From Schmidtea polychroa (Eukaryota), in assembly GCA_044892525.1 (NCBI GenBank), contig CM097885.1, forward strand, positions 4,714,001 to 4,778,000: DNA of 64,000 bases. The letters are read 5' to 3'. Position numbers and translations under genes: made by a program. Below are positions 3,001-55,836 of this stretch, one piece after another (within the stretch, counting starts at the first letter, position 1; each line of letters begins with the position of its first letter). Under the pieces are notes generated by a model. The model saw only the letters and a list, made by a program, of their open reading frames with translations, was not told the origin of the DNA and searched no databases.

Positions 3001-3072
3001 GATTCTTGAGGGTGTAAATGTGCAAGTATTGACCAGACGAAACATTTGTTATCATTATTCTGTATGTTTATA
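1..3072 (-). pseudogene. Protein-primed family B DNA polymerase (A1), central/C-terminal part; nonsense codon at 2739; runs off window
   Basis: Near-identical to ORF 50584..54744; CAA>TAA at 2739..2741; split at 3072/3073 by Polinton B. Confidence 0.93.
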
Positions 3073-4802
3073 AGTAGGTAGATAGTAGCCCACGGGAACA
3101 ATTACCCCCCCCCCCCCCGAGGAGGGGTTTGTTCCCAAATTTTTATTACGCAATTGTTCCCAACTCATTTTTTTGCTTTCAGGGAATTTTAGTCCAAATT
3201 TTTTTTTATCACACTATAGTGAGGGGGTCTCGATGGTCCTGGGATTTTCAATACAAAAAAAAATTTTTCAATATAAAAACGATGGTCCTGGGATTTTCAA
3301 TACAAAAAAAATTTTTCAATACAAAAATCCGACTTCCACTAAAAAAGCATGGAATTTTCACACTATAGTGAGAGGGTCTCGATGGTCCTGGGATTTTCAA
3401 TACAAAAAATTTTTTTCTATACAAAAATCCGACTACCACTAAAAAAGCCAAGGATTTTTCAGACTATAGTGAGGAGGTCTCGATGGTCCTGGGATTTTCA
3501 ATACAAAAAAAAATTTTCAATACAAAAACGATGGCCCTGGGATTTTCAATACAAATAAAATTTTTTCAATACAAAAACGATGGTCCTGGGATTTTCAATA
3601 CAAAGCTGGTCTACACTAAAAAGCCAAGGATTTTTCAGACTATAGTGAGGTGAGTCTCCTTGGTCCTGAGAAATAGGTGGTCTACACTAAAAAAGCATGG
3701 TAATTTAAGGTCTCAGGATATTTTCAATACAAAAAGCTGGTCTACACTAAAAAAGCCAAGGATTTTTCAGACTATAGTGAAGTGAGTCTCCTTGGACCTG
3801 AGAAATAGCTGGTCTACACTAAAAAAACGTGGTAATTTAAGGTCTCAGGATATTTTCAATACAAAAAGCTGGTCTACACTAAAAAAGCATGGTAATTTAA
3901 GGTCTCAGGATATTTTCAATATAAAAAGCTGGTCTATACTAAAAAGGCCAAGGATTTTTCAGACTATAATGAGGTGAGTCTCCTTGGTCCTGAGAAATAG
4001 GTGGTATACACTAAAAAAGCATGGTAATTTAAGGTCTCAGGATATTTTCAATACAAAAAGCTGGTCTACACTAAAAAGCATGGTAATTTAAGGTCTCAGG
4101 ATATTTTCAATACAAAAATCTGGTCTACACTAAAAAGCCAAGGATTTTTCAGACTATAGTGAGGTGAGTCTCCTTGGTCCTGAGAAATAGGTGGTCTACA
4201 CTAAAAACATGGTAAATTTTTCAATTAAAGTAAATTAAGGTTCTAAAAATTTCAAATAAAGTAAATTATGGTCCAAATTTTAAAATTAAAGTAAATTATG
4301 GTTCTAAAAATTAAATTATAGTAAATTATGGCTCAAATTTTTCAATTACAGCAAATTATGGTCCTAAAAAATTAAATTAAAGTAAATTATGGCTCAAATT
4401 TTTCAATTACAGTAAATAATGGTTCTTAAAATTGAATTAAAGTAAATTATGGTCCAAATTTTTGAATTAAAGTAAATTATGGTTCTAAATTTTTCAATTA
4501 CAGTAAATTATGGTCCAAATTTTGAATTACAGTAAATTATGGTTCTAAAAATTAAATTAAAGTTAATTAAGGTCCAAATTTTTAAATTAAGTAATCAATG
4601 GTAAAAAATTTTAAATAAGTAAATTAAAGTAAGATTTTAAAATTTATTAACAAAAAGTTGAAGGTGTTTGAGAATTGAAATTTTTTAATGAAAATTTTTA
4701 TGGAATAATTTTTTAAGTAATTTTTAATGGAAATTTTTATGAAATATTTTTCAATGATAATTTTAGATGGAAATTTTTAAGATAATTTTTAATGAAAATT
4801 TT
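3073..4802 (+). repeat. Left TIR of Polinton B, built of tandem sub-repeats
   Basis: Reverse complement of ~17017..18320; units such as GGTCCTGGGATTTTCAATACAAAA and AAAGTAAATTATGG; inner boundary approximate. Confidence 0.88.
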
Positions 4803-15996: not shown

Positions 15997-16473
15997 ATGA
16001 TCAGCAACATTAATTATAGAGGAAGATGTGTAGTAAATGGAATGAAGTTCCCATCAGGAAAACCTCAACATGTCGTGGACAGAAGTGGAAAATATCCAAT
16101 TTTATTCTTCAAGAGCGGGAAATGTAGGATAATGGGATGTAAGAAACCATTACAGGAAGGCGATCTCAAATATCAGATTCAAGATTTACAAATCCAATCA
16201 ATTACATTAACGCTAGATATGGGTACATGCATTGATTTAAATGCATTGTCAAGAAAAACCGATAGTTACTACGAGCCTGAAATATTTCCAGCTTTACGTA
16301 TTCTCAAGTATAACCCCCTATGTGTAAATGTTTTTTCAAGTGGGAAAGTTGTTATATTAGGGATTAAAACATTTGATTATTTTAATCAAATTCAAGAAAT
16401 TCAGAAATTCATTAAATCATTAACTATAAATATCACAACAAATGAAGAAATATTGGAATATTTATTAAGTTAA
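15997..16473 (+). CDS. TATA-binding protein (TBP)-like protein carried by Polinton B
   Basis: Two TBP-like repeats: ILFFKSGKCRIMGCK and YEPEIFPAL...VNVFSSGKVVILG; first ATG at 15997; intronless. Confidence 0.8.
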   Translation: MISNINYRGRCVVNGMKFPSGKPQHVVDRSGKYPILFFKSGKCRIMGCKKPLQEGDLKYQIQDLQIQSITLTLDMGTCIDLNALSRKTDSYYEPEIFPALRILKYNPLCVNVFSSGKVVILGIKTFDYFNQIQEIQKFIKSLTINITTNEEILEYLLS

Positions 16474-18320: not shown

Positions 18321-19000
18321 TTTATAACATTTTTAGATTTAAAGGGTGTAGGAATATAAGATTTAGGACTAGGTGGTAATCCTCTCCAATAATCAATCAC
18401 TAAAGTTTGGAAAGAGTTGAATACTAAGTTTGAATCTCCTATTTCATTTTCAACCTCTTCTTGTTTTGCTTCTACTGCTTGAATTATTTCTTTGATGGTT
18501 TTATCAAATCCTTTAGTTGAAAATAAATATTTAAAGGGTATTCCAATTTCAACATCTAAAGGTGTTGTCTTTTCTTCTGCTCCTCGCCAGTATTTTGCTT
18601 TGATTATAATTTTATATTTTATAACATTATACCTTGTCGGTTTATAATTTTTTAAAGCTTCAGTGAAAGAATTTTTAATATTTTTTTTATTTTATTTATA
18701 TATTCTCCAGGAGTTATAGGTCCATTGATTTCTAATTGAAATTCATCTACATGATTAAAATCATCCCAGTTATCATTTCTCTCTCTAACATGATCAGGTT
18801 CTCCTTCTGAATGACATTCCTCATCGTCAGAATTTTGTTTTTTATTTTTACATTCTTTTATATGTTCTAAATAATAGAAATTTACTTTTGTTGTAAAGTT
18901 ACAATGAGGACATGTAAATATTTCTCTATTTTTCCCGATACAATTTTCAAAATGTTTATTATATCCAGAATGTAGAAATCTTCCTTTACATTTAGGACAA
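18321..19000 (-). pseudogene. N-terminal part of A1 pPolB (C2H2 fingers), frameshifted, start deleted
   Basis: Matches 53948..54628; frame lost near 18690; joined to TIR sequence at 19000. Confidence 0.9.
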
Positions 19001-19255
19001 TTATCGCCACCTGTCTTTCGAACACCCCCGGATCGATTCTTTAATGTGCACATTTATTTCTCAGTTGTTTTCGGACCTCTTTCGGATTCACTTTCGAATT
19101 CATTTGTACTTTCGAGCAGCACGCTTAAAACGCCGATGAAATCGTATTCGAGCGAGAAGCGAATAATAAGGTGTGCTGCTATTATCGGATTGATTCTGAT
19201 GTATGAGTCTGGCCAGCTTGTATATTGGAAGAGATTTCATAAACGAAAGAGGTTG

Positions 19256-33600: not shown

Positions 33601-34307
33601 TGATACATTACCGACAAATTTAAAACATTATTTTGTAAATTAAATATAATTGGGTTAGGGGTCTTCTTTATCCCTTAATTAAAACGTATTTACAAGCTGG
33701 TTGTCGTGGTGGGCGGTTGTAATCCAACTAGTGGAAGGCCTCTTGTTGTTAGTGAATACATTAATTAATTTGGCTATAATGCCAATGACGCATTGTCATG
33801 CTCGCACATTTTTATGTATTTTTAATACGTTTTGAATGTGCTGGTAGTTGACTACCCTGGCATACTAGGCGTATTGTTCCGTACGGAGAACTATGATGTC
33901 CAGGGTTCTTCTGAGCCCACTTTGTAGAAAGAACAGACGACCCTTGTGGCCGTGAACAAATATCCACCATGTCTTTCAGGCACAGATATTTGTTCACTGC
34001 TCAGTAGGCTGGCAATACTAAATGCATAAACTTCGTCTTGTCCTATCTTGTCTTGATTTTTTATCGTTTAAATAATTATTATTTAAATAATTAATAATTA
34101 TAAAAATAGTATGAGGGTTTCAAATTATACATGTGATAATTAAATTTTTATTTTAAAATTATTTACTAACCACAAAACGCATATTTTTAGTGCAATATAT
34201 ATATATATATATGCGTTAAACTCAAAAAACATTTTTATTTACTCAAAATTGACATATAATTCCCTAAAGATTTTACCCTTAATTGCTTATGAATTTCTAT
34301 AGGTTAG

Positions 34308-35025
34308 AGTAGTGTGTATATATACCCAACCAACACAACCCTCCCAACAAAAACATACCTCCATTACGCTTAACCCATTAGAAAACAACCCAAAACTTAT
34401 ACTTTTATAGTATTTTAACCCCATATTTTAAACAACAACCACCCTTAATCTTTCAAGCCTCAAACTCAAAAGCTTCAAACTAAAAAGAGAATAGAAAAGA
34501 AAATGGCATTATGAAAAAGTTAGAGGGCTATTTGGGTTAGGGCTATATACACACTACTTTTGATCGCAATCAAACTTCGGAGTTGATCTTTATCAGATTA
34601 TTGATTTTAAATTATATAAATTAAAAAATAAATGAAAAATAGTAAAACTGCTCTGAGGGGACAGTGGCATTTTTTTTTTCACTGTCCCCTCAACAGTTTT
34701 TTTTGATCCGGATCATTTCAACCCCTTTCGTTTATCAAATCTCTTCTAATATACAAGCTGGCCAGACTCATACATCAGAATCAATCCGATAATAGCAGCA
34801 CACCTTATTATTCGCTTCTCGCTCGAATACGATTTCATCGGCGTTTTAAGCGTGCTGCTCGAAAGTACAAATGAATTCGAAAGTGAATCCGAAAGAGGTC
34901 CGAAAACAACTGAGAAATAAATGTGCACATTAAAGAATCGATCCGGGGTGTTCGAAAGACAGGTGGCGATAATTGCCGGTTCGCCACCATCACCCGTTTC
35001 AATAATTTTTTTTTCATATTTATGT
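34308..35025 (+). repeat. Left TIR of A2 (718 bp)
   Basis: Near-perfect reverse complement of 55039..55756. Confidence 0.95.
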
Positions 35026-36230
35026 ATCCAGGTGAAAGACATTTATTTAAACACAACTATACCGGACCAGGAACAAGATTAGATATTAGATTAGATGAAA
35101 ATAATAATCCCAAACAAGGAGAAGAACCAATAAATAGAATCGACCAAGCAGCTTTAAAACATGATATTGCTTACAATTCAGAAGATCTTAGAGATAGACA
35201 TGTTGCAGATGTTAATTTAATACATGATTAAAATAGTATCCAAAATCCATCAACCCAAGAAAAGATTCAAAGAGCTCTAGTTAAATTAGCAATGAAAGGT
35301 AAGATCGCCATAGGCTTAGGACTTCCTAGAATAGCAAAAGATGTTGCTAATAAAAAGATTATTGAACAAGCAGATGCTGAAAGATCCCTCGAGAATATAT
35401 CCAAGACTAGTTTATTAACCCCAACAGAATCACAAATAAAATATGCCAACGAATTACACCATGAATTTAGAAAAAATAAAAAATATTTAAAAGTTCAAGT
35501 ACATGAAAAAGATCAAACATGGTCTGCAGATTTAGTCTTTATGCCAACCAAATCATCAGTTCCTGAAAAATATAAAATAATTTTAACTGTAATAGATTTA
35601 TATACAAGATTTGCCTTTGCAAGGTGTTTAGAAAATAAAACAGGATATTCCATTACAGAAGCATTTGAAAATATATTTGAAGAACATCAAAGAATTTCAA
35701 AATATTTATGGTGTGATAAAGGAACAGAATTTTATAACAAAGTTTTTACAAAGTTTTTAAATGAAAATGATATTAAATTATATTCAACAGAAAACGAAGG
35801 AAAAGCAGTTGTGGTTGAAAGATTAAATAGAACATTAAAAAATAAAATGTGGAAATATTTTACTGCTATTGGAAAACAAAAATGGAACAATGAGTTATTA
35901 CAAAAGATTGTAAATGAATATAATAATGATGTACATAGTTCTATAAAATCAACCCCTTTAAATGCTTCCATGAATCCTGAAACCATTAAAGTGGTAAATA
36001 TTGAAAATGATGTTATTGAAAAACCAAAGTTTAAAATTGGTGAACGAGTAAGAATATTTAAATATAAAAATAAATTTGAAAAAGGATTCACAGCAAAATG
36101 GACAAATGAAATTTTTATTATAAATAAAATAAATTATATAACTCCAATAACATATTGCATCATTGATTTAAATAATGAAAAAATATTAGGTAGATTTTAT
36201 AATAATGAGTTACAGAAAACAGATTTTTAA
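35022..36230 (+). CDS. Parvovirus-type phospholipase A2 domain in frame with rve integrase; one in-frame TAA at 35229
   Basis: NYTGPGT and D..A.KHDIAY motifs; frame continues through TAA to ATG 35292; integrase WSADL, WCDKGTEF, VERLNRTLK; no chromodomain. Confidence 0.88.
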
Positions 36231-36241
36231 GTCGACAAGCC

Positions 36242-37054
36242 CTAAAACAAACTTTTCCATATTTCAGCTTCTTCTCTATCCAAATAAATATAATTATATT
36301 TTTCTTTCCAATGATTATCAACAAACATATCAAACATATTGTTATCAGGTTCAACATTTGAAAATAAATCATTATAAATCATATTCTTATCACGGCGATC
36401 TAATTTAAAAAATATAAAACAATTAGAATTATTTCTTATTGAATTTTTATCTAAAGCATAATATGTTTGAGATATATAAATAACATTACAATTATTATGT
36501 CTTCCTCTTGTAAAGTAACTCTTTTGAATCTCTTGATTTTTCATATTAACAACATCATCAAATATAACTAGATTCTTTTTATCTTTAGGAAGTAAATCAC
36601 AATGTAAAACATTTTCAGGTTTATTAGAGAATAAAACTTGAATCGCCTCTGCCTGCTCCTCATCTTCACAGATGTAATCATTTTTATTACTAATATCTGA
36701 TTCTAAAATCTTTTCCTTATACCAATCAACCATATCACAAGGATGAAAAACTTCTTCAGGACATCTATGTTGATTTCTAAAAATATCAATTATTGCTTTT
36801 TTAGTTAATTTATTTTCAAATCCACATTTCAAAAGTTGTAATTCTGGTTGATTTATGGTTGTAGAATAAAAGATTAAATTATTATAATCTAAAAAACCAT
36901 CATCAAGTAACATTTTCAAAACAAGTACATTCTTTCCACATCCAGAAGATCCAACAATTAATAATCTTAAATTATCAGGAAATACTTTATTATTAAATTT
37001 AGATTTATGTCTATTTAAAATTGGTTTCCAAATTATTGGACTTCGTACATCCAT
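36242..37054 (-). CDS. A32/FtsK-like packaging ATPase
   Basis: GSSGCGKN, VIFDDV, RGRH, ISQ, IRNN; annotated start codon is ATG at 37054. Confidence 0.92.
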   Translation of the reverse strand: MDVRSPIIWKPILNRHKSKFNNKVFPDNLRLLIVGSSGCGKNVLVLKMLLDDGFLDYNNLIFYSTTINQPELQLLKCGFENKLTKKAIIDIFRNQHRCPEEVFHPCDMVDWYKEKILESDISNKNDYICEDEEQAEAIQVLFSNKPENVLHCDLLPKDKKNLVIFDDVVNMKNQEIQKSYFTRGRHNNCNVIYISQTYYALDKNSIRNNSNCFIFFKLDRRDKNMIYNDLFSNVEPDNNMFDMFVDNHWKEKYNYIYLDREEAEIWKSLF

Positions 37055-38359
37055 TTTATTTATTATAAAATGACCTCAAAGAGTTCCTCTACTGAAAAAT
37101 CTTTGCAAGAATTAATAAATTCAAATAAAAATAAATCAATAGTAATTGATGGTAAAAAATATTTTATTGGAAAACATGTAAAAGAACAAGTTAGAGCGAA
37201 GCTGAAGAAGGCGGCATTCTTCCATTAGCTGCTTTAATACCTGCAATCATTGCTGGTTTATCAGGTGCTGCTGGAATAGCTGGAGGAATTGCAACTACAG
37301 TTCAAAAAGCTAAAGAATCTCAAAAGACAGACCTAGAAAAAGAAAAACTACAAACTGAAATCGATTCAATGAAGAAGGTAGGGCAAGCTAAGGGAAAAGG
37401 CCTCTATCTTAATCCATATGAGGGGACTCTGTCTGAAGGTCAAAAGTCTCAGGGGACTCTGTCCAAGGGAAAGGGTCTCTATCTTGATCCTTATAAAGGT
37501 AGAGGTTTAAATGATTTTTTAAAAAATCAAATTTCTACATCTGAATCTTTATCTTCAAAAGATAAAGAAGATTTAAAAAAAATATGTAAATCTTTAAAGA
37601 ATGGATGCAGTAGTGGGATGTGTCACCACTGGCACATGTCACCTCTGGGGGGGTAAACGAAAAAATTTTTCAAGGTCAAATTTTAAACAAAGACATATGA
37701 CTCATCAAGGTCATTGAAACAAAGACCATGACTCATCTTATGACGCATCAAGGTCATTGAAACAAAGACCATGACTCATCCTATGAATCATCAAGGTCAT
37801 TGAAACAAAGACCGTGACTCATCGAGGTCATTGAAACAAAGACCGTGACCCATCGAGGTCATTGGATGACTCGCCAAGGTCATTGGATGACTCACCAAGG
37901 TCATTGAAACAAAGACCATGACTCATTCAAGGTCATTAGATAACTCATCAAGGTCATTGAAACAAAGACCATGACTCATTCAAGGTCAATGGATGACTCA
38001 TCAAGATCATATTTTTAAGGTCAAAGTCATATTTTTAAGGCCAAGGTCATATTTTTAAGGTCAATGTCATATTTTTAAGGTCAAGGTCATATTTTTAAAG
38101 TCAAACGTTCACTAAAGGGTATCATTCGAAAGGTATTTGAGAGATCTATCTAATGGTCATACCCTCGAAGGTATATGATGGGTCAATAACCTTCAAAGGG
38201 TCAAAAACCTTCGAATTTTTTCAAACTTTATAATATATATATATATATATATATCAGTCGAAAGGTATTTGAGAGGTAAGTATGATGGTCATACCCTCGA
38301 AGGTGAATGGTGGGTCAATAACCTTCAAAGGGTATCCAAAATTAAATATTTTTAAAATC

Positions 38360-38430
<71 letters not shown>

Positions 38431-40012
38431 TTCAAAAGTACTTTTGATGGTGAGTTCGAAGGTCCAAGGGTCCAAGGTTCAAAAATTTTAAAACCTTATA
38501 ATATACATATCAAACAAAAGGTATTTGAGATGTAAGTATCATGGTCATACTTTCAAAGGTTTATGAATGGTCTTGAAACTTCAAACCTTCAAAGGGTCCA
38601 AAACCTTTAAAAATTATACATATAGATATATACATGTCAAATAAAAGGTAATACAAAGGTGAGCATGATAATCATACCCTTGAAGGTCATACTCTCGAAA
38701 GGGTCCAAGGTTCAAATTTTTTAAAACCTCATAATATACATATCAAATAAAAGGTAATACAAAGGTGAGTATGATGGTCATACCCTTGAAGGGCATACCC
38801 TCGAAAGGGTCCAAGGTTCAAATTTTTTAAAACCTCATAATATACATATCAAATAAAAGGTAATTCAAAGGTGAGTTCGAAGGTCCATAGGTCGAAGGGT
38901 CCAAGGTTCAAATTTTAGAAACATTATAATATACATATCAAACAAAAGGTAATTCAAAGATGAATATGATGGTCTAAGTTTGAAGGTCAAAGAGTCCAAG
39001 GATCCAAGGTTTAAATTTTTCAAACCTTATATTATACATATCAAACAAACGGTAATAAAAAAGTACTCATCGATGACTCATTTATTTTTTGAACAAATGC
39101 AATGACGCGCCCATGGAATTTATTATTTATTACTATCAATAGTATTATTATTATTTATTATTATTAATTTCAATATTATTTATTATTATCAATAGTATTA
39201 TTATTATTTTCGAAAATATTTTCAAAATTTATTATTAATATTACTATTATTATTATCATCAAGTTTTAATTATCAAGGAAATTTAAACAAAGACCATGAC
39301 TCAGTCGCTGAGTCATCAAGGTCATTCTATTTTTAGTAACATTTTGAATATATTTTTAGTAACATTTTTGATCCGATCATTGATCCGATGACTCGCCAAG
39401 GTCGTTCTATTTTTAGTAACAAAGACATCTATTTTTGTTCCAGCGGTTTATTTTTGTTTTAATTATAGATTAAGAAATAATTTAATTTTGTTTAAATCGT
39501 TGATTATTTAATAATATTTTTATTTTTGTTTTAATTATCGAATACGTAATAATTTAATTTTGTTTAAATTGTTAATTATATAATAATATTTTTATTTTTG
39601 TTTTAATTATTGAATACGTAATAATTTAATTTTGTTTAAATTGTTAATTATATAATAATAATTTTATTTTTTGTTTTAATTATCGAATACATAATAATTT
39701 CATTTTGTTTAAATCGTTGATTATGTAATAATAATATTTTTGTTTTGATTTTCGATTACTCAATAATTTAATTTTGTTTAAATCGTTGATTATATAATAT
39801 TTTTTGTTTTAATTATTGATTACGTAATAATTTAATTTATCATTATTATTGGGAAAGATAATAATGCCGCGCGGAAGATGTTATTTTCAAAATTATTATT
39901 TTCGAAGTTTTAATTAATATTATTATAGAGTCCGAGTTTATCCGACAAAATATTGTGTCCCCCTATGTGTATTTGTCGTAAGGGTACTAGTCACATTCAA
40001 CATGTCCCAAGG

Positions 40013-40065
<53 letters not shown>

Positions 40066-40541
40066 ACTTTATAATTATTATTTTATTATTTTCAAGGTCA
40101 TATTATTATTTTTCAAAATATTATTATTTTTCTAAATAGTTTTATTTTCAAGGTCATATTATTATTTTTCAAAATATTATTATTTTATTATTTTCAATAT
40201 CATATTATTATTTTTCAAAATATTATTATTCTCAAGGTCATATTATTACTTTTTCAAATATTATTATTTTCAAGGTCATATTATTATTCTTCAAAATATT
40301 ATTAATTTCAAGGTCATATTATTATTTTTCAAATATTATTATTTTCAAGGTCATATTATTATTCTTCAAAATATTATTAATTTCAAGGTCATATTATTAT
40401 TTTTCAAAATATTATTATTCTCAAGGTCATATCATTATTTGTTCCATATGTTTGAAAAACTGTAGTAGATGTCAGAGTTGTGGTGTCATAATCGATGAAT
40501 CTCATTCAGTGTATTTTGTGAAATTAATGTTGTAAAACTCC

Positions 40542-40629
<88 letters not shown>

Positions 40630-40635
40630 TATTAC

Positions 40636-40695
<60 letters not shown>

Positions 40696-41035
40696 TATTA
40701 TTATTATTATTATTTGCGAAGTTCTTATTATTTTATTTTCGATGTTTTATTATTATTTACTTCATAATTCATAATTCATAATTTTTAACGTTTTCATCAT
40801 TTTCAACATTTTCATCATTTTCATAATTTTCAAGATTTTCATAATTTTCACGATTTTCAATATTTTCAAAATTATTTTCAAATTTCTTATTATTTATTTT
40901 CAAAGTATATTATTATTATTATTATAATATATGCTCCTAGTCTATCCGACAAAATATTTTGTCCCCCTATGGGTACTGCTCACAATCAACAGGTTGCAAG
41001 GGTACTAGTCATGCTTATTATTATTGTTATACAAT

Positions 41036-41335
41036 ATGATGTTACTTAGACATTTGAAGGTTCTACCATGGTTACAATTTCTAGATTTTGAAAACACTAA
41101 TTTGATTTTTGAATGGATAGCAAAACCCGATTTGATTGAAAATAATCTAACGGAAAAACTGTACGATGTTAAGAAACGGTATTTAACTTGTTCAATTTGT
41201 AAAGAAAATCAAGTTTCGGTTTTGTATTTACCGTGTGGTCACGTAATTGTTTGTTCTAAGTGTCACGAGAAGAATGTTCACAATTGTCAAGCCTGTTCAA
41301 CACTGATTAATGAATATCATAATATATACATGTAA
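41036..41335 (+). CDS. Small C3HC4 RING protein (IAP/MDM-type C-terminal RING), copy 1
   Basis: CSIC...VLYLPCGHVIVCSKC.....CQAC...I.....IY at extreme C-terminus; ATG 41036. Confidence 0.85.
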   Translation: MMLLRHLKVLPWLQFLDFENTNLIFEWIAKPDLIENNLTEKLYDVKKRYLTCSICKENQVSVLYLPCGHVIVCSKCHEKNVHNCQACSTLINEYHNIYM

Positions 41336-41831
41336 GTTCTCAATACAAATCAATACAAAGTCAAATGAATTATTACCATACATAATGACGGTACTATAAT
41401 GTAGGAAATTTTCAAACATTGAATAATATGAAATCATCTTGGTAATTAAATATATTGGGCGCAACTACCAAATGTTGATGATATGATGGATGGTTTGACA
41501 TTTATGATATTATTTTTAGATTATTCAGAATGAAATATACCCATGAGTCCATCAAAATGGGAAAAAGATCTTCTCAAGAACCATGAAGATGCTGGAAAGG
41601 CCGAAGAAACCCTAACCAATATTTTAAAGTTGAAATTATGTGTTACAGTATTTTCAAATTTAGAATATTTTCAAATTTCTTATTATTTATTTTCAAAGTA
41701 TATTATTATTATTATTATTATTATATATGCTCCTAGTCTATCCGACAAAATATTTTGTCCCCCTATGGGTACTGCTCACACTCAACAGGTTGCAAGGGTA
41801 CTAGTCATGCTTATTATTATTGTTATACAAT

Positions 41832-42131
41832 ATGATGTTACTTAGACATTTGAAGGTTCTACCATGGTTACAATTTCTAGATTTTGAAAACACTAATTTG
41901 ATTTTTGAATGGATAGCAAAACCCGATTTGATTGAAAATAATCTAACGGAAAAACTGTACGATGTTAAGAAACGGTATTTAACTTGTTCAATTTGTAAAG
42001 AAAATCAAGTTTCGGTTTTGTATTTGCCGTGTGGTCACGTAATTGTTTGTTCTAAGTGTCACGAGAAGAATGTTCACAATTGTCAAGCCTGTTCAACACT
42101 GATTAATGAATATCATAATATATACATGTAA
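41832..42131 (+). CDS. RING protein copy 2 (796-bp tandem duplication)
   Basis: Same protein sequence as copy 1. Confidence 0.85.
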   Translation: MMLLRHLKVLPWLQFLDFENTNLIFEWIAKPDLIENNLTEKLYDVKKRYLTCSICKENQVSVLYLPCGHVIVCSKCHEKNVHNCQACSTLINEYHNIYM

Positions 42132-43886
42132 GTTCTCAATACAAATCAATACAAAGTCAAATGAATTATTACCATACATAATGACGGTACTATAATGTAG
42201 GAAATTTTCAAACATTGAATAATATGAAATCATCTTGGTAATTAAATATATTGGGCGCAACTACCAAATGTTGATGATATGATGGATGGTTTGACATTTA
42301 TGATATTATTTTTAGATTATTCAGAATGAAATATACCCATGAGTTCATCAAAATGGGAAAAAGATCTTCTCAAGAACCATGAAGATGCTGGAAAGGCCGA
42401 AGAAACCCTAACCAATATTTTAAAGTTGAAATTATGTGTTACAGTATTATTACTGTTTCGTAAATAAATGTTTAATTTGTTTTTATAAATTTATTGTTTT
42501 ATTTCAATACTTTTTGATTAAAACATATTCATTTTGTTTTAATATTTGTATTAAATTTTTAAATAGTGTTATTTATATATATGGAAATTTACATACAATT
42601 ATATTTACAATTATTATAAATCATAATGATGCTTTTCTTCTGTTCATTGATTCTCCTCTGATATTACTGCCATAATCATCTTCGACAAAATGTAAAGATA
42701 ATATTTCTAGTGTCTTTGTTAATCATGCCCATTTATTGCAAAGTCTTTGTTAATTATGCACTTGTATTGCAAATTTATTAGTCATACAATTATATTATTT
42801 TTTTTTCATGCCCTGACATAATATTATTATTTTTAATTTTATTATTATGATTATTTAACAATACCATATAGCAAATTTTTAGGGAATTTAGTGAAAAGTA
42901 CATGGTTATTTTAAATATAGGAATTTCTTAAGTAAAATATTGCCAGATAAATTTACCAATTTAGTTAGAAATCCATGGTTTTTGGCTGTACCATTTAATT
43001 AAAATATTCTTGGATTCATAACAATTTTTTTTTATATAGTTGATAGTAATACCAATTATCTCAATTATTTAACTAGAAACATAACAGAATTCTTAGGTAA
43101 TATAGTATTTTTTAGTTAATTTATAAATATTATCTGACATTTTGATGTGTTTGACAACAAATTATTCAATAAAAACCATAGCATATTGTAAGTTTTTATA
43201 TAAAGTCTGAATTTATCCGACAATATATTTTGTCCCCCTATGTGTATTTGTCGTAAGGGTACTGCTTACATTCAACATGTCTCAAGGGTATATTAATTAA
43301 AGCACATGTATAGTAGTTAAAAATTCTTAGGTAATTTAGTGAGAAATGGATGATCATAGATATCAGAAATTCGTGAATATTTTGAATGTAACTTACCGAA
43401 TTCTCATTTCGAGCGACTAATTTATTGGTTAACTTTGTCATGTTTAGTCATGTAAAATAATATTAAGCAAAAGGTAAGATATGAATATTTAGTATTTCAT
43501 AGGTAATTTATTCATGTAATGTTCATTACAATAGTTAATACAACTTCGTGAGAAATGCATATTCATTAATAACAACATATATTTATTGATAATTTTGGTA
43601 GAAAGTCTTTATCATTTGGAGTAAATGTCTATCTTTGTTTGAGGCAAAAAGGAGTCATAATAGAAACATGATCATTTAGTTATCATTTAACCAATTAAGG
43701 TGCTTATTAGTTAGAAATATAGGGTTACAATTCTTTTCTTATTTATTGAGATGATCATTGCGCCCAATATAATTAATTACCAAGATGATTTCATATTATT
43801 CAATGTTTGAAAATTTCCTACATTATAGTACCGTCATTATGTATGGTAATAATTCATTTGACTTTGTATTGATTTGTATTGAGAAC

Positions 43887-44186
43887 TTACATGTATATAT
43901 TATGATATTCATTAATCAGTGTTGAACAGGCTTGACAATTGTGAACATTCTTCTCGTGACACTTAGAACAAACAATTACGTGACCACACGGTAAATACAA
44001 AACCGAAACTTGATTTTCTTTACAAATTGAACAAGTTAAATACCGTTTCTTAACATCGTACAGTTTTTCCTTTAGATTATTTTCAATCAAATCGGTTTTT
44101 GCTATCCATTCAAAAATCAAATTAGTGTTTTCAAAATCTAGAAATTGTAACCATGGTAGAACCTTCAAATGTCTAAGTAACATCAT
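43887..44186 (-). CDS. RING protein copy 3 (inverted arm)
   Basis: Differs from copies 1 and 2 by two residues (P>T, T>K). Confidence 0.85.
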   Translation of the reverse strand: MMLLRHLKVLPWLQFLDFENTNLIFEWIAKTDLIENNLKEKLYDVKKRYLTCSICKENQVSVLYLPCGHVIVCSKCHEKNVHNCQACSTLINEYHNIYM

Positions 44187-44819
44187 ATTGTATAACAATA
44201 ATAATAAGCATGACTAGTACCCTTGCAACCTGTTGAGTGTGAGCAGTACCCATAGGGAGACAAAATATTTTGTCGGATAGACTAGGAGCATATATAATAA
44301 TAATAATAATAATATACTTTGAAAATAAATAATAAGAAATTTGAAAATAATTTTGAAAATATTGAAAATCGTGAAAATTATGAAAATCGTGAAAATTATG
44401 AAAATGATAAAAATGTTGAAAATGATGAAAACGTTAAAAATTATGAATTATGAATTATGAAGTAAATAATAATAAAACATCGAAAATAAAATAATAAGAA
44501 CTTCGCAAAAAATAATAATAATAATAGTAATAATTAAAATAACAATAATAATAATATACTTTGAAAATAATTCTTTGAAAATAATTCTTTGAAAATAATA
44601 CTTTGAAAAATATTCGATGAAAAGTTTCTGAAATAATCATGAAAATGTTGAAAATCGTGAAAATATTGAAAAATGTTGAAAATGATGAAAATATTGAAAA
44701 TGATGAAAACGTTAAAATTTATGAAAATGTTCCTAAAAATAATCATCAAATATTGAAAATCGTAAATTGATGCAGAAAATAAAATAATAAGAACTTCACA
44801 AATAATAATAATAATAATA

Positions 44820-44937
<118 letters not shown>

Positions 44938-45168
44938 GGAGTTTTACAACATTAATTTCACAAAATACACTGAATGAGATTCATCGATTATGACACCACA
45001 ACTCTGACATCTACTACAGTTTTTCAAACATATGGAACAAATAATGATATGACCTTGAGAATAATAATATTTTGAAAAATAATAATATGATATTGAAAAT
45101 AATAAAATAATAATATTTTGAAAAATAAAAATATGACCTTGAAAATAATAAAATAATAATTATAAAGT

Positions 45169-45212
<44 letters not shown>

Positions 45213-46840
45213 CCTTGGGACATGTTGAATGTGACTAGTACCCTTACGACAAATACACATAGGGGGACACAATATTTTGACTCTATAATAATATTGATTA
45301 AAACTTCGAAAATAATAATTTTGAAAATAACATCTTCCGCGCGGCATTAATATCTTTCCCAATAATAATGATAAATTAAATTATTACGTAATCAATAATT
45401 AAAACAAAAAATATTATATAAGCAACGATTTAAACAAAATGAAATTATTATGTATTCGATAATTAAAACAAAAAATAAAATTATTATTATATAATTAACA
45501 ATTTAAACAAAATTAAATTATTACGTTTTCAATAATTAAAACAAAAATAAAAATATTATTATATAATTAACAATTTAAACAAAATTAAATTATTACGTAT
45601 TCGATAATTAAAACAAAAATAAAAATATTATTAAATAATCAACGATTTAAACAAAATTAAATTATTTCGTAATCGATAATTAAAACAAAAATAAACCGCT
45701 GGAACAAAAATAGATGTCTTTGTTACTAAAAATAGAACGACCTTGGCGAGTCATCGGATCAATGATCGGATCAAAAATGTTACTAAAAATATATTCAATG
45801 GCGCGTCATTGCATTTGTTCAAAAAATAAATGAGTCATCGATGAGTACTTTTTTATTACCGTTTGTTTGATATGTATATTATAAGGTTTGAAAAATTTAA
45901 ACCTTGGATCCTTGGACTCTTTGACCTTCAAACTTAGACCATCATATTCATCTTTGAATTACCTTTTGTTTGATATGTATATTATAATGTTTCTAAAATT
46001 TGAACCTTGGACCCTTCGACCTATGGACCTTCGAACTCACCTTCGAATTACCTTTTATTTGATATGTATATTATGAGGTTTTAAAAAATTTGAACCTTGG
46101 ACCCTTTCGAGGGTATGCCCTTCAAGGGTATGACCATCATACTCACCTTTGTATTACCTTTTATTTGATATGTATATTATGAGGTTTTAAAAAATTTGAA
46201 CCTTGGACCCTTTCGAGGGTATGACCTTCAAGGGTATGACCATCATACTCACCTTTGTATTACCTTTTATTTGATATGTATATTATGAGGTTTTAAAAAA
46301 TTTGAACCTTGGACCCTTTCGAAGGTATGACCTTCAAGAGTATGATTATCATGATCACCTTTGTATTACCTTTTATTTGACATGTATATATCTATATGTA
46401 TAATTTTTAAAGGTTTTGGACCCTTTGAAGGTTTGAAGTTTCAAGACCATTCATAAACCTTTGAAAGTATGACCATGATACTTACATCTCAAATACCTTT
46501 TGTTTGATATGTATATTATAAGGTTTTAAAATTTTTGAACCTTGGACCCTTGGACCTTCGAACTCACCATCAAAAGTACTTTTGAATGATATATATATAT
46601 ATATATATATATTATATGATTTTAAAAATATTTAATTTTGGATACCCTTTGAAGGTTATTGACCCACCATTCACCTTCGAGGGTATGACCATCATACTTA
46701 CCTCTCAAATACCTTTCGACTGATATATATATTATGAGGTTTGAAAAAATTCGAAGGTTTTTGACCCTTTTAAGGTTATTGACCCACCATATACCTTCGA
46801 GGGTATGACCATTAGATAGATCTCTCAAATACCTTTCGAA

Positions 46841-46888
<48 letters not shown>

Positions 46889-47183
46889 AATTTTGAAAAA
46901 ATTCGAAGGTTTTTTACCCTTAGAAGGCCGAGGACCCACCATACACCTTCGAGGGTATGACCATTAGATAGACCTCTCAAATACCTTTCGAATGATACCC
47001 TTTAGTAAAGGTTTGACTTTAAAAATATGACCTTGACCTTAAAAATATGACCTTGACCCCAGAGGTGACATGTGCCAGTGGTGACACATCCCACTACTGG
47101 ATGCCTTTGTAAAACTAAAAATGGTAAAGGTTTATACTTGAAGCCCTTCGAGCCCCATTGATACCATTTTTAATACCATAAAA

Positions 47184-50583: not shown

Positions 50584-53500
50584 TTAAATATCGTTGAAAG
50601 CCAACCTTTGAATCATTAATTTATGATCTTTAAATTCTTTATCACTTAGACCTTTTATATATTCAGGATCAGTATTAAAATATTTAAGTTCTAAACATAT
50701 AGGATTAAAAACTTGAGAATATAAAGGCTTCTCGATTTCTCTCTCGGGATAAATGATTTCAACATTATAAATATCAAGATCAGTAATTTTTGTATCATAT
50801 AACTTATTCAACTTTTCTAGATTTTTTATTATCGGTATTAAATTATTTCCTATAGGAAGAGTTGTCTTTAAATCACTTAGGATGAATCTCTTATCATCAT
50901 AATTTGATAATGATACTTTTTGAGATTCTATCAAGTGAATATCATGGTTTTCGCTTTTAATCTGATGCACTTCATCAATTTTATCTTTATGATTTGGATT
51001 CAATGTATCTATATAATCTTGATGAGAAAGATTCTTTGCAACGGATTTCTGTATTCCTTTACATCTGTTATCCTTTACAGGTTTTTCTTCTTGTCCCTCT
51101 GGTCCTTTAGGGAATATAGGATATTTAAATGAAATAATTTCCTCTTTTTCTGGGGTTTTAAATATAATTTCTCGGGTTATAAATTCAGGGTTTTTAAATG
51201 TTTCGTATGAATATTGTTTAGCACGAATAAATATTCCATTTTCTATAAGAGTAAAAGGTTTTTCATCTTTAAATGAAAATAATTCTCCAGTTGAATTTAT
51301 TAAATTTGAAAGTATAGGATTTTCAGCTATATCTCTTTGTAAATCATGAGTTCTTATTGTTAAAAACATTGAATCTGTATCCATTGCATGCATTGATATA
51401 TTAGAACCATATATAGGTTGTAAGATGTTATAATATGTTTCATACATTTGTAATTTTGAAAGTTCTAAAATGAGTATATGAGTATATTTATCAACATTCT
51501 CCATTGTTTTCCCAAAGACTGAATTGTTTAAAAGTTTATAATTATTATCTTTAAAAAGGTTACCTTCTCTTTTTGCAATGTTTCGACATCTAATGTTCTC
51601 CTCGATAAAAGCTTTCATGAATGGCCTCTGTTTAAATCTTATGACACTATGAACTTTTTTTAATATCATACCTCGTGAAAGATAAAATTGGAGGAGTCTA
51701 TAGTGACAAAGATAAAACCTTCGATCTGTTTGATCACAAAGAAGTTTCATTGTTGGAGGTTTATCTTGTGAGATTTGCCATTCAGAAAGTTCGTTGATAT
51801 CAATCTTTCTTCTTACAGGAGCTAATGGGAAATATCTTGTTCCTGATTTTATATCATCTGGATATAATAAGTCACATTCTACAAAGTAACCTATTGGAGA
51901 ATCTTTAGGTGTTGAAAGTATTTCTTTTATAAGTTCTTTTGATGATTCTATTTTAATGAAATCACCCATTGGTAAATATTGAGTCATAATTCCTGAATAT
52001 AAAGCTGTTGCATCTATATAAAGTATAAATATAGGATATTTCATTGTTTCTAATATTTCTTTTAATTCCTCATTGTTAATTTTTATATATGGATCAGAGG
52101 TCTTTGAAAGCATCCTGCTAGTAGTTATTGCATTTCTAGCTTTTATTTCTCTATTCCCCATTACTGAAGAGACTCCTCCTCTAATGTTTGTTTTAATTAG
52201 ATTAAACATATCGAGGTTAGTTAAAAGATCTATAATTTTATCAGCTTCTTCTATATTTGAAGTCCAAATGGTATATAATAAAGTATCCCAAGCTAAAGAG
52301 GGTGCTGTTATATAATTGTAAGGTTTAAGAACAAAAGATTTTGTAAATTCTTCAAAGCAATCTGCTAGAATATAAACATCCAAGGATAAATACATACTTG
52401 TATATTCTCCTAAAGTTTTACACTTGAATAATTCCCACATTTTATTTGCTCGAGAATATTCTTGATTTGTAATATGATTTTTTTGAAGTTGTGAATAGAA
52501 ATCTTCTTGGCTAGGAAGACTTGTTTCATTATATCTTTCAAACGAGTCAACATAGTCATAAGGATATATTCCTTTTGCTAAACATGTAGGATATTCTTCT
52601 AGAGGAATATTATTTTTTTCCAAGAATTCTCGAGTGATTTTAAAATCTTCTGGTTTCATTGTTTTAGCTATTCCATCTAGAGACATTTGAAGAAAGTTTA
52701 ACGAGTCTATAAATTTTAATTTTCCATATTCAACTGATTTATATTTTTCCTTTGTAAGTCCTATAACTTTGAAAGAGTTTTTAGCATTTGCTGCTAAATG
52801 TTTAATAAATAGATGTATGTCATAACCAAAAAGATTATGAAATATAACAGGTACAAATTTAGGAGTATGATAATTAAGATTACAATTTTTATGAGCTGCT
52901 CCTCGATAATTATTTTCCTTTTTTAAATGATCATGATCGAGGACTTTTATATTCGGAGACTCTTCAAATGGTTGTTTACACATCCAATAGTTGGAAGTGT
53001 TTTCATATTCTTGTTGTTGTTGATTAGAAATATTTTGAGGATAGTTTGTTTTTAATACTTTAAATATTTCATGTTCTAGATCATTTATACTTTTAGTAAA
53101 ATGATTCAAGACTTCTGTTTCTGAAATTCCTCGAAATGTATATTCTCTAGATTCTATGAGTTCAGGATAATTACTTTTAAATAATAATTTATAAGCAGAT
53201 GGTAATTGTTTAGTTTTTTTAACACTATTAGGTTTATTCCTTTTTCTTAGAAAGGCTTTCATCCTCTCTGGTTTCATCTTCTCTCCTGAGGAGTTCCAGG
53301 AATCCATGAGTTTATTTTTTTCTATTATTTTTAAATATTGTTTAACCAAATCTTGTTTACGATTTATAGATTCAAAGTCCCCATAAAGCACTCCTACTGT
53401 TTGTAGTAAATTTGAAAAGTTTTTAAAATACATCTTGGGATTATTAGGCATTTTAATTAAAGCTGGATCATCTTTTTCACAAAATCTTGTATGTTTAATC

Positions 53501-54744
53501 ATAGAGTTTTTAGTTGTTGAATAATGAAGACATCTTTTACATGTTCCTCCTCCACTAGTTGGATTCTCTGGTGATGTAAAAGCTTGAAAGTTTTTTATTA
53601 AAACATAATGTTGATTATTTTGTTGTTCCAAGATTAAAAGATATATCTCCCTAGTGTTATCCTGGGGTTCATTATCTCTAACTTCATAATCTGAAATATA
53701 AATTGGAATAATTTCTCTGCTATTAACATGTTTCCCTTTAACACGTTCATAAATATTAATTTTAAGATTATTTAAACTTTCAAATTTTGGAATGTCTTCT
53801 TGTTTCATTGGATGTTTGAATCCTTTGGGAAATATTAATTCATTTTCATATTGTTTGTATTTTGAAACTCTTTGAGGGTTTGATTCTTGAGGATGTAAAT
53901 GTGCAAGTATTGACCAGATGAAACATTTGTTATCATTATTCTGTATGTTTATAACATTTTTAGATTTAAAGGGTGTAGGAATATAAGATTTAGGATTAGG
54001 TGGTAATCCGCTCCAATAATCAATCACTAAAGTTTGGAAAGAGTTGAATACTAAGTTTGAATCTCCTAATTCATTTTCAACCTCTTTTTGTTTTGCTTCT
54101 ACTGCTTGAATTATTTCTTTGATGGTTTTATCAAATCCTTTAGTTGAAAATAAATATTTAAAGGGTATTCCAATTTCAACATCTAAAGGTGTTGTCTTTT
54201 CTTCTGCTCCTCGCCAGTATTTTGCTTTGATTATAATTTTATATTTTATAACATTATACCTTGTCGGTTTATAATTTTTTAAAGCTTCAGTGAAAGAATT
54301 TTTAATATTTTTTTTATTTTTATTTATATATTCTCCAGGAGTTATAGGTCCATTGATTTCTAATTGAAATTCATCTACATGATTAAAATCATCCCAGTTA
54401 TATTTTTCTCTTTCAACATGATCAGGTTCTCCTTCTGAATGACATTCCTCATCGTCAGAATTTTGTTTTTTATTTTTACATTCTTTTATATGTTCTAAAT
54501 AATAGAAATTTACCTTTGTTGAAAAGTTACAGTGAGAACATGTAAATATTTCTCTATTTTTCCCGATACAATTTTCAAAATGTTTAATATATCCAGAATG
54601 TAGAAATCTTCCTTTACATTTAGGACAAACTTTTGAATTTGTATCATTAAGATTGTTTTCTTTTAATAAATGAGCTTTCGATTTTAAGTGAGAAATTAAT
54701 CCAGTTTTATTTTTAAAAACTTTATTACAAATATTACAATTCAT
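50584..54744 (-). CDS. Protein-primed family B DNA polymerase with N-terminal C2H2 fingers and endonuclease VII-like insert; 52-codon internal deletion
   Basis: YGDFES, DHDH...RGAAH..CN, FHNL.GYD, YIDATALY, KLLNNSVFGK, MDTDS, KGI, DDKR. Confidence 0.95.
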   Translation of the reverse strand: MNCNICNKVFKNKTGLISHLKSKAHLLKENNLNDTNSKVCPKCKGRFLHSGYIKHFENCIGKNREIFTCSHCNFSTKVNFYYLEHIKECKNKKQNSDDEECHSEGEPDHVEREKYNWDDFNHVDEFQLEINGPITPGEYINKNKKNIKNSFTEALKNYKPTRYNVIKYKIIIKAKYWRGAEEKTTPLDVEIGIPFKYLFSTKGFDKTIKEIIQAVEAKQKEVENELGDSNLVFNSFQTLVIDYWSGLPPNPKSYIPTPFKSKNVINIQNNDNKCFIWSILAHLHPQESNPQRVSKYKQYENELIFPKGFKHPMKQEDIPKFESLNNLKINIYERVKGKHVNSREIIPIYISDYEVRDNEPQDNTREIYLLILEQQNNQHYVLIKNFQAFTSPENPTSGGGTCKRCLHYSTTKNSMIKHTRFCEKDDPALIKMPNNPKMYFKNFSNLLQTVGVLYGDFESINRKQDLVKQYLKIIEKNKLMDSWNSSGEKMKPERMKAFLRKRNKPNSVKKTKQLPSAYKLLFKSNYPELIESREYTFRGISETEVLNHFTKSINDLEHEIFKVLKTNYPQNISNQQQQEYENTSNYWMCKQPFEESPNIKVLDHDHLKKENNYRGAAHKNCNLNYHTPKFVPVIFHNLFGYDIHLFIKHLAANAKNSFKVIGLTKEKYKSVEYGKLKFIDSLNFLQMSLDGIAKTMKPEDFKITREFLEKNNIPLEEYPTCLAKGIYPYDYVDSFERYNETSLPSQEDFYSQLQKNHITNQEYSRANKMWELFKCKTLGEYTSMYLSLDVYILADCFEEFTKSFVLKPYNYITAPSLAWDTLLYTIWTSNIEEADKIIDLLTNLDMFNLIKTNIRGGVSSVMGNREIKARNAITTSRMLSKTSDPYIKINNEELKEILETMKYPIFILYIDATALYSGIMTQYLPMGDFIKIESSKELIKEILSTPKDSPIGYFVECDLLYPDDIKSGTRYFPLAPVRRKIDINELSEWQISQDKPPTMKLLCDQTDRRFYLCHYRLLQFYLSRGMILKKVHSVIRFKQRPFMKAFIEENIRCRNIAKREGNLFKDNNYKLLNNSVFGKTMENVDKYTHILILELSKLQMYETYYNILQPIYGSNISMHAMDTDSMFLTIRTHDLQRDIAENPILSNLINSTGELFSFKDEKPFTLIENGIFIRAKQYSYETFKNPEFITREIIFKTPEKEEIISFKYPIFPKGPEGQEEKPVKDNRCKGIQKSVAKNLSHQDYIDTLNPNHKDKIDEVHQIKSENHDIHLIESQKVSLSNYDDKRFILSDLKTTLPIGNNLIPIIKNLEKLNKLYDTKITDLDIYNVEIIYPEREIEKPLYSQVFNPICLELKYFNTDPEYIKGLSDKEFKDHKLMIQRLAFNDI

Positions 54745-54843
54745 TTTTAGAAAAAAATTTTTTATTGGATATCCTGTTTTGATTTTTTATGTTTTTATAT
54801 TTATTTTCATAATGTGACAGTATAAAAAATAACAAAAGTCCAA

Positions 54844-54924
54844 ACCTAGATAGCGCAGTGGGCTAGACCGGCACCGTGGTTCAAATGGATAGCGGTTCAA
54901 ATCCTAACTGTGGTTAGTTTTTTT
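54844..54924 (+). ncRNA. Candidate RNA polymerase III (type 2 promoter) small RNA, tRNA-like
   Basis: A box TAGCGCAGTGG 54851..54861, B box GGTTCAAATCC 54894..54904, T7 tract 54918..54924; GC-rich island in AT-rich spacer; cloverleaf imperfect. Confidence 0.55.
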
Positions 54925-55038
54925 CAACATAAAATAATATTAAAAATTTGAAAATAATAGTGTGGGTATCTTAGTTGTATATTTTATTTATTTTATTTAT
55001 TTTATTTATTTTATTTATTTTATTTATTTTATTTTTAA

Positions 55039-55756
55039 ACATAAATATGAAAAAAAAATTATTGAAACGGGTGATGGTGGCGAACCGGTAATTATCGCCA
55101 CCTGTCTTTCGAACACCCCGGATCGATTCTTTAATGTGCACATTTATTTCTCAGTTGTTTTCGGACCTCTTTCGGATTCACTTTCGAATTCATTTGTACT
55201 TTCGAGCAGCACGCTTAAAACGCCGATGAAATCGTATTCGAGCGAGAAGCGAATAATAAGGTGTGCTGCTATTATCGGATTGATTCTGATGTATGAGTCT
55301 GGCCAGCTTGTATATTAGAAGAGATTTGATAAACGAAAGGGGTTGAAATGATCCGGATCAAAAAAAACTGTTGAGGGGACAGTGAAAAAAAAAATGCCAC
55401 TGTCCCCTCAGAGCAGTTTTACTATTTTTCATTTATTTTTTAATTTATATAATTTAAAATCAATAATCTGATAAAGATCAACTCCGAAGTTTGATTGCGA
55501 TCAAAAGTAGTGTGTATATAGCCCTAACCCAAATAGCCCTCTAACTTTTTCATAATGCCATTTTCTTTTCTATTCTCTTTTTAGTTTGAAGCTTTTGAGT
55601 TTGAGGCTTGAAAGATTAAGGGTGGTTGTTGTTTAAAATATGGGGTTAAAATACTATAAAAGTATAAGTTTTGGGTTGTTTTCTAATGGTTTAAGCGTAA
55701 TGGAGGTATGTTTTTGTTGGGAGGGTTGTGTTGGTTGGGTATATATACACAGTACT
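55039..55756 (-). repeat. Right TIR of A2 (718 bp)
   Basis: Reverse complement of 34308..35025. Confidence 0.95.
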
Positions 55757-55836
55757 GGTTAGGTCGTATCATCAATAGATAGAGATTATTATTATTATTG
55801 CCAAAGTTATTTTAGAAGTTTTATTATTATTATTAA

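Follow-up and report, generated by a model that had tools for sequence, protein, structure and literature searches.

A predicted Pol III unit next to the pPolB gene of a Schmidtea polychroa Polinton

The host Polinton and its surroundings

The window, the whole 64,000-nucleotide stretch of DNA that was analysed, contains a Polinton spanning 34308-55756, and the short unit described here lies inside it. Polinton/Maverick elements are recognised by their TIRs, a 6-bp TSD, AG..CT ends, pPolB, an integrase and an ATPase. All of these were found in the host element, whose main features are as follows.

34308-35025, no strand assigned: left TIR, starting AGTAGT and preceded by the TSD GGTTAG at 34302-34307
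35292-36230, plus strand: retroviral-type integrase (PF00665)
36242-37054, minus strand: A32-like packaging ATPase (PF04665, weak match)
50584-54744, minus strand: pPolB ORF of 1386 aa, with relatives that include PF03175 polymerases, head-to-head with the unit
55039-55756, no strand assigned: right TIR of 718 bp, 99.6% identical to the left, followed by the TSD GGTTAG at 55757-55762

No major capsid gene was recognised among the element's ORFs, and tblastn with a fragment of the neighbouring Polinton family, which we take to be capsid-like, gave no match inside the element. An Atlas search with ORF 49501 returned scores that were all below 0.8. Compared with a partial copy at 1-3073, the pPolB ORF, which presumably contains a TP domain, shows a gap in its interior near 51471-51476. 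Its start codon is the minus-strand ATG at 54744; the unit begins ~100 nt away, is directed outward, and ends 114 nt short of the right TIR. The location given in the preliminary description, between the pPolB start and the TIR, is thus correct.

A further copy of this Polinton family, at 18321-19255, carries a deletion that fuses the 5' part of pPolB to the interior of the TIR. The 461 nt deleted correspond to 54629-55089, so that the unit, the pPolB start and part of the TIR are all gone.

Several other features of the window were observed. A 9.5-kb, largely palindromic element at 37609-47098 is nested in the Polinton, where it interrupts a small gene region; it has AGTAGT...ACTACT ends and a 6-bp TSD, GGATGC, and is likely a non-autonomous Polinton derivative. 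The ORF at 15997-16473 (plus strand), which encodes a TBP domain (PF00352, E 3.4e-16), faces the ATPase of a second Polinton family head-to-head and is outside the element carrying the unit; TFIIIB also has TBP among its subunits. Within the TIR, 55365-55418 and its left-TIR mirror form a strong 20-bp hairpin (z -7.7, 0/200 shuffles) with a T4 end on the plus strand. Since the region folds on both strands, the structure could be a cruciform in the DNA and not an RNA. The stretch 55221-55380 folds on the plus strand only (z about -3.3). For a flanking host transporter gene, the best named matches are tapeworm SLC46-type proteins (35-37%), and one nameless match reaches 93%; we take the host to be a free-living flatworm.

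Promoter boxes, terminator and predicted RNA

Box A, TAGCGCAGTGG, at 54851-54861 (plus strand) agrees at 11/11 positions with the consensus TRGYnnARBGG, and box B, GGTTCAAATCC, at 54894-54904 (plus strand) agrees at 11/11 with GGTTCRAnYCY, both consensuses being those in passages of PMC7279448. The two boxes are 32 nt apart, within the ~30-40 nt of a type-2 Pol III gene, and the oligo-T terminator of such a gene is present downstream of box B as a T7 run. The two consensus boxes, their spacing and the T7 given in the preliminary description were therefore all borne out. We list the parts of the unit below.

54820-54832, plus strand: AT-rich, TATA-like stretch of putative function, ~24 nt upstream of the predicted start
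54843-54924, plus strand: predicted Pol III transcription unit of ~78-82 nt with a tRNA-sized skeleton, its start placed from the position of box A
54869-54886, plus strand: inner 17-18-nt repeat unit, in which a degenerate second box A (54869-54879) overlaps a partial box B at 54878
54912-54915, plus strand: 3' GGTT, for which sequence and folds allow pairing with 5' AACC
54918-54924, plus strand: T7 Pol III terminator, the listed length variants having only gained T

In a pattern scan of the window, the strict box B occurred only once in 64 kb. Using an order-2 Markov model, we found the strict pattern of box A, box B and T run in 0 of 300 simulated windows, and a looser pattern 0.01 times per simulated window; in 100 further simulations there were no zero-mismatch A/B pairs. 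The unit is 51% GC, whereas its 100-nt flanks are 17% and 11% GC. A weaker A/B pair in the TIR (from 55060, with a mirror at 35004) has two mismatches and an expectation of 0.62 per window, and was set aside as chance.

The second B box that had been noted at 54878 is real as a partial box, with 9/11 agreement and a distance of 27 nt from box A, but it is better read as a piece of an internal duplication. The central part of the unit resembles a short tandem duplication, with a self-alignment score reached by 18/500 shuffles. The hexamer before the T run (54912-54917) matches the TSD of the element, GGTTAG, letter for letter and resembles a telomere repeat, which is probably a coincidence.

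The fold predicted for the RNA is an irregular hairpin with a U tail at -19.4 kcal/mol. This is no better than shuffled sequence (z -0.21), since 73 of 200 shuffles folded equally well, and the predicted fold contains no long perfect stem. Constraining the fold to the terminal stem gave -17.1 kcal/mol, which is 2.3 kcal/mol dearer. When the five variant places found among the copies (see below) were laid on the predicted fold, the pair was kept at 3/5 and pairs with a probability of at least 0.9 were broken at 2/5; by hand analysis, the variants at 54910/54911 fit the alternative terminal stem. Because the fold is no better than those of shuffles and two of the five variant places disrupt high-probability pairs, this modelling suggests that what is constrained is the DNA signals and not the RNA shape. 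The RNA structure is not clearly kept, and some constraint at the RNA level may exist.

The unit keeps the geometry of a tRNA, with 45 nt between the equivalents of T8 and T54 and with a 5' AACC matched by a 3' GGTT ~70 nt later (by hand). However, only 2/4 D-stem pairs and 2/5 T-stem pairs could be formed by hand, and the anticodon stem is absent. ARAGORN found 0 tRNA genes in the window, and in Rfam nothing reached the gathering score for the unit, whose only matches were unrelated and at chance level (E 1.6-9.8). These results agree with the earlier view that the unit is not a complete tRNA. The Rfam VA, vault, miRNA and tRNA families gave no match up to E 10. Thus, the unit lacks both the family-model match and the long terminal, central and apical stems of a VA RNA, and it lacks the model match of a vault RNA. 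Flatworms trans-splice, and a spliced-leader RNA was also considered; this candidate was rejected, as the ATG at 54885-54887 is followed by GA, with no GT donor, and Rfam was blank.

Copies, variants and distant relatives

We compared 4 of the 24 listed public sequencing runs with 54260-54979 at 80% identity, all of the data being contigs. X1 and X5 carry the label of organism A and X7 that of organism B; the fourth, X11, is guessed to be RNA. Summed contig depth over the unit was 2.2x (X1) and 1.6x (X5) that of the neighbouring pPolB, where summed unitig depth is not copy number. A free SINE family would be expected to exceed the pPolB depth by far more. In X1 and X5, 0 of the 4 listed joints removed the unit, and the share of contigs running on into unlike sequence was 0-0.01. 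No loose end fell at the borders of the unit among the X1 loose ends listed, with 136 more beyond these.

In X7, the depth was at most 35 in the pPolB bins, 37,000-65,000 in the box-A bins, 233,000 in the box-B bin, and 1.0-1.7 million in the 3' flank; the highest of these depths may be inflated by the AT-rich 3' flank. Pieces of the unit differed from the window copy at 3-8 positions in 57-60 nt (~87-95% alike), while the pPolB stretch was nearly absent at 80% identity. The upstream loose end in X7 (at 54843) is similar to the window's upstream sequence and includes a comparable TATA-like stretch, and a loose end at 54974 is common to X1, X5 and X7. In another X7 class, comprising 29 contigs at an agreement of 0.68, a box-B-like motif occurs together with the same 3' end but a different linker. 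To judge from these sequences, the unit travels with its flanks and either is better kept than this part of pPolB or belongs to a different or non-autonomous family in X7. The comparison shows that the unit is a fixed, high-copy part of the Polinton family. This supports the element-encoded Pol III unit that had been proposed, with similar flanks present in a run labelled as another organism.

X11 contigs cover the unit and pPolB alike, and one spans the terminator; contigs show neither RNA ends nor RNA level. In the same run (record 14), a single low-depth contig on the plus strand, antisense to pPolB, covers 54566-54685 and has a long A run at its 54685 end. It is possibly a polyadenylated antisense transcript.

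Variants were taken from the 40 best-supported of 85 rows, the other 45 being weaker. Among these 40, five places within the unit varied (54869, 54875, 54893, 54910 and 54911), and none of the five is in a box. As for whether the boxes are conserved across copies, the variants do avoid them, but five places would miss the 22 box positions with p=0.16 under an even spread, which is not significant alone. None of the six listed indel rows touched a box, the T run having gained T only, and promoter and terminator were intact in all variant rows listed. At 54869 and 54875, most contigs differed from the window copy (53-100% and 71-100% of depth by run, respectively), and those copies match box A in full a second time, at 54869-54879.

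Distant Polintons were represented by 106 pPolB loci at 25-42% identity, collected by alignment-based scans: 80 retained from the 527 that a partial metagenome scan confirmed, plus 26 viral. None of the 106 has a comparable unit; one ordinary tRNA-Thr was found, with 0-1 per round in the controls. This tRNA-Thr(GGT), at 1620-1693 of the contig of locus L044, which carries a distant pPolB relative, is at control level. At the 52 of 106 loci that reach at least 300 nt upstream of the frame, where spliced leaders could shift the true starts, there was one loose match (L095), compared with 0-1 in controls. Because these 106 loci show none, Polintons in general manage without such a unit. Exact DNA patterns had 0 matches in viral contigs and 0 in metagenome contigs, and a pPolB scan of viral contigs with a single protein gave no confirmed relative. 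Our literature search, mostly of open-access texts and without Repbase, found no description of such a unit in animal Polintons.

We conclude that the unit is real, non-random and family-wide in an animal Polinton, and that it is not a member of a tRNA, SINE or VA family.

Likeness to known Pol III units and possible function

VA RNAs are ~160 nt long, inhibit PKR, Dicer and Exportin-5, and are encoded head-to-head with the terminal-protein gene. The adenovirus VA-I/II genes, which belong to a related lineage of protein-primed DNA viruses, share with the Polinton unit a type-2 internal Pol III promoter (excerpts of PMC7279448). They also share a place beside the terminal-protein gene, the VA gene of a primate adenovirus lying between pTP exon 2 and 52K in passages of PMC5123214. 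In contrast, the Polinton RNA would be about half as long, has no stable multi-stem fold and has no Rfam match. The suggestion of a VA-RNA analogue consequently holds for promoter type and for position by the terminal-protein/polymerase gene but not for RNA structure, given the half length, the z of -0.2 and the missing Rfam VA match. The likeness in position is probably convergent.

Vault RNAs have 5' and 3' ends that pair around a variable centre, and the Polinton unit can be likened to them in this. A vault RNA is likewise a short type-2 Pol III RNA with boxes A and B (excerpts of PMC7904556); unlike it, the Polinton unit has no Rfam vault match (E up to 10) and is present in high copy inside a Polinton.

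Other compact viral type-2 Pol III units are the MHV68 TMERs and the BLV pre-miRNA genes. As described in parts of PMC8223928 and PMC4267658, the TMERs resemble a tRNA in their 5' part and carry box A in triplicate, and the BLV units have one or two A boxes; most Polinton copies have a second box A match as well. A spare box A also occurs in cellular Pol III units (passages of PMC12487709). The TMERs differ in having miRNA hairpins after the tRNA-like part, whereas the Polinton unit has neither these nor any significant hairpin, and in BLV the terminator is between boxes A and B rather than after box B. Pol III-type units are also found within Polinton-related elements, namely the tRNA genes of polinton-like viruses, virophages and MELD viruses (portions of PMC12220804 and PMC8502044). 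Those tRNAs are detectable by ARAGORN or Rfam and are read as codon helpers, whereas the Polinton unit is detected by neither and has no anticodon arm.

Passages of PMC12409998 describe tRNA genes that block the spread of heterochromatin in a TFIIIC-dependent way. Like these tRNA-gene and ETC barriers, the Polinton unit is a box A/B unit adjoining a Pol II promoter in repeat DNA that is likely silenced; it differs in being on a mobile virus-like element and in not being a tRNA, and its barrier role is putative. ETC sites, in the same excerpts, are B-box-only and bind TFIIIC without TFIIIB or Pol III, whereas the Polinton unit has a box A and a terminator. Thus, the TFIIIC insulator that had been suggested fits as a tDNA-type barrier, with box A, box B and terminator, and fits less well as a B-box-only ETC site.

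Our preferred reading, to which we give a tentative probability of about 45%, is of a tRNA-derived Pol III unit that works chiefly in cis, serving the polymerase promoter as a chromatin barrier of the tDNA type or as an opener. Its ancestor would be a tRNA gene in which a short internal duplication took the place of the centre. TFIIIC would bind the boxes and load TFIIIB onto the pPolB promoter region just upstream. The Pol III product would be a weakly structured RNA of ~80 nt ending at the T7, where the terminator would keep the enzyme out of the terminal repeat. By analogy with tRNA-gene barriers, the bound complex could hold the polymerase promoter open or shield it from silencing that spreads from the end of the element. 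On this model, the parking of host Pol III machinery is likely, rather than an adenovirus-style decoy RNA. The perfect boxes at tRNA spacing (0/300 by chance), the family-wide presence of the unit and the variants that avoid the boxes argue for action in cis. The p of 0.16, the 3/5 variant places that keep the fold pair and the 106 distant pPolB loci without the unit argue against it, as does the deleted copy at 18321-19255, which has no unit, though the pPolB start is missing there too.

It is somewhat unlikely, in our judgement, that the ~80-nt RNA is itself selected and acts in trans, in the manner of adenovirus VA RNA, MHV68 TMERs or BLV Pol III pre-miRNAs, as a decoy for Dicer/Argonaute/PIWI or Exportin-5 or as a source of viral small RNA. 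Such an RNA would account for a discrete unit that has a start geometry and whose strong terminator is intact in the listed variants, for the AACC/GGTT terminal pairing that the 54910/54911 variants fit, and for a predicted fold of one irregular hairpin with a U tail. The doubled box A known in BLV and TMER promoters (parts of PMC4267658 and PMC8223928) and the VA-like place beside the terminal-protein gene (excerpts of PMC5123214) are in keeping with it. However, the fold has a z of -0.2 and no long perfect stem, two of the five common variant places break it, some X7 contigs have a different centre, and Rfam gave no VA, vault or miRNA match. The boldest version, in which Pol III small RNAs are encoded by animal Polintons themselves and the ~80-nt RNA, its gene head-to-head with the terminal-protein/polymerase gene like that of a VA RNA, is produced by thousands of copies and jams the host Dicer/PIWI defence, is doubtful; if true, this jamming would help to explain how Polintons overran this genome.

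Also doubtful is a neutral relic, that is, a decayed tRNA gene or SINE head caught once by an ancestor of the lineage and propagated with it, with boxes still intact by luck or recency. A tRNA-sized skeleton with its stems lost would be expected of such a relic, as would box conservation indistinguishable from chance in the listed rows (p=0.16) and distant Polintons without the unit; the internal 17-18-nt duplication (18/500 shuffles) suggests free drift of the centre. Yet boxes and terminator are perfect with the stems gone, a 51% GC island persists in surroundings of 11-17% GC, and the unit is ~87-95% alike in X7, where the pPolB stretch is nearly absent at 80% identity.

Finally, a host SINE present in this single copy, or a chance cluster of motifs, is very improbable: the (TTTTA)n run at ~54982-55035 can be read as a SINE tail and the other partial copy in the window has no unit, but that gap is the 461-nt deletion that also took the pPolB start and part of the TIR, the T7 right after box B would end a SINE transcript before its tail, no target-site duplication was seen by eye, the unit's depth is of the same order as that of pPolB in X1 and X5 with no empty-site joint listed, and chance produced no such cluster in 300 simulations. 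Among the best-supported loose ends, on which this flank comparison was made, the flanks are common to X1, X5 and X7, the upstream flank extending even to X7. The possibility raised in the preliminary description, that the sequence is the head of a host SINE found only here, is therefore contradicted by the family-wide presence of the unit and by the similar flanks in X7.

Viral Pol III small RNAs are well known as a class, so the Polinton unit would be a variant of that class, with a putative function. Such units escape tRNA and Rfam scanners, so that others may go unnoticed elsewhere. Polintons have been described through their proteins, and the unit offers a concrete, testable handle on how they may escape silencing and use their promoters.
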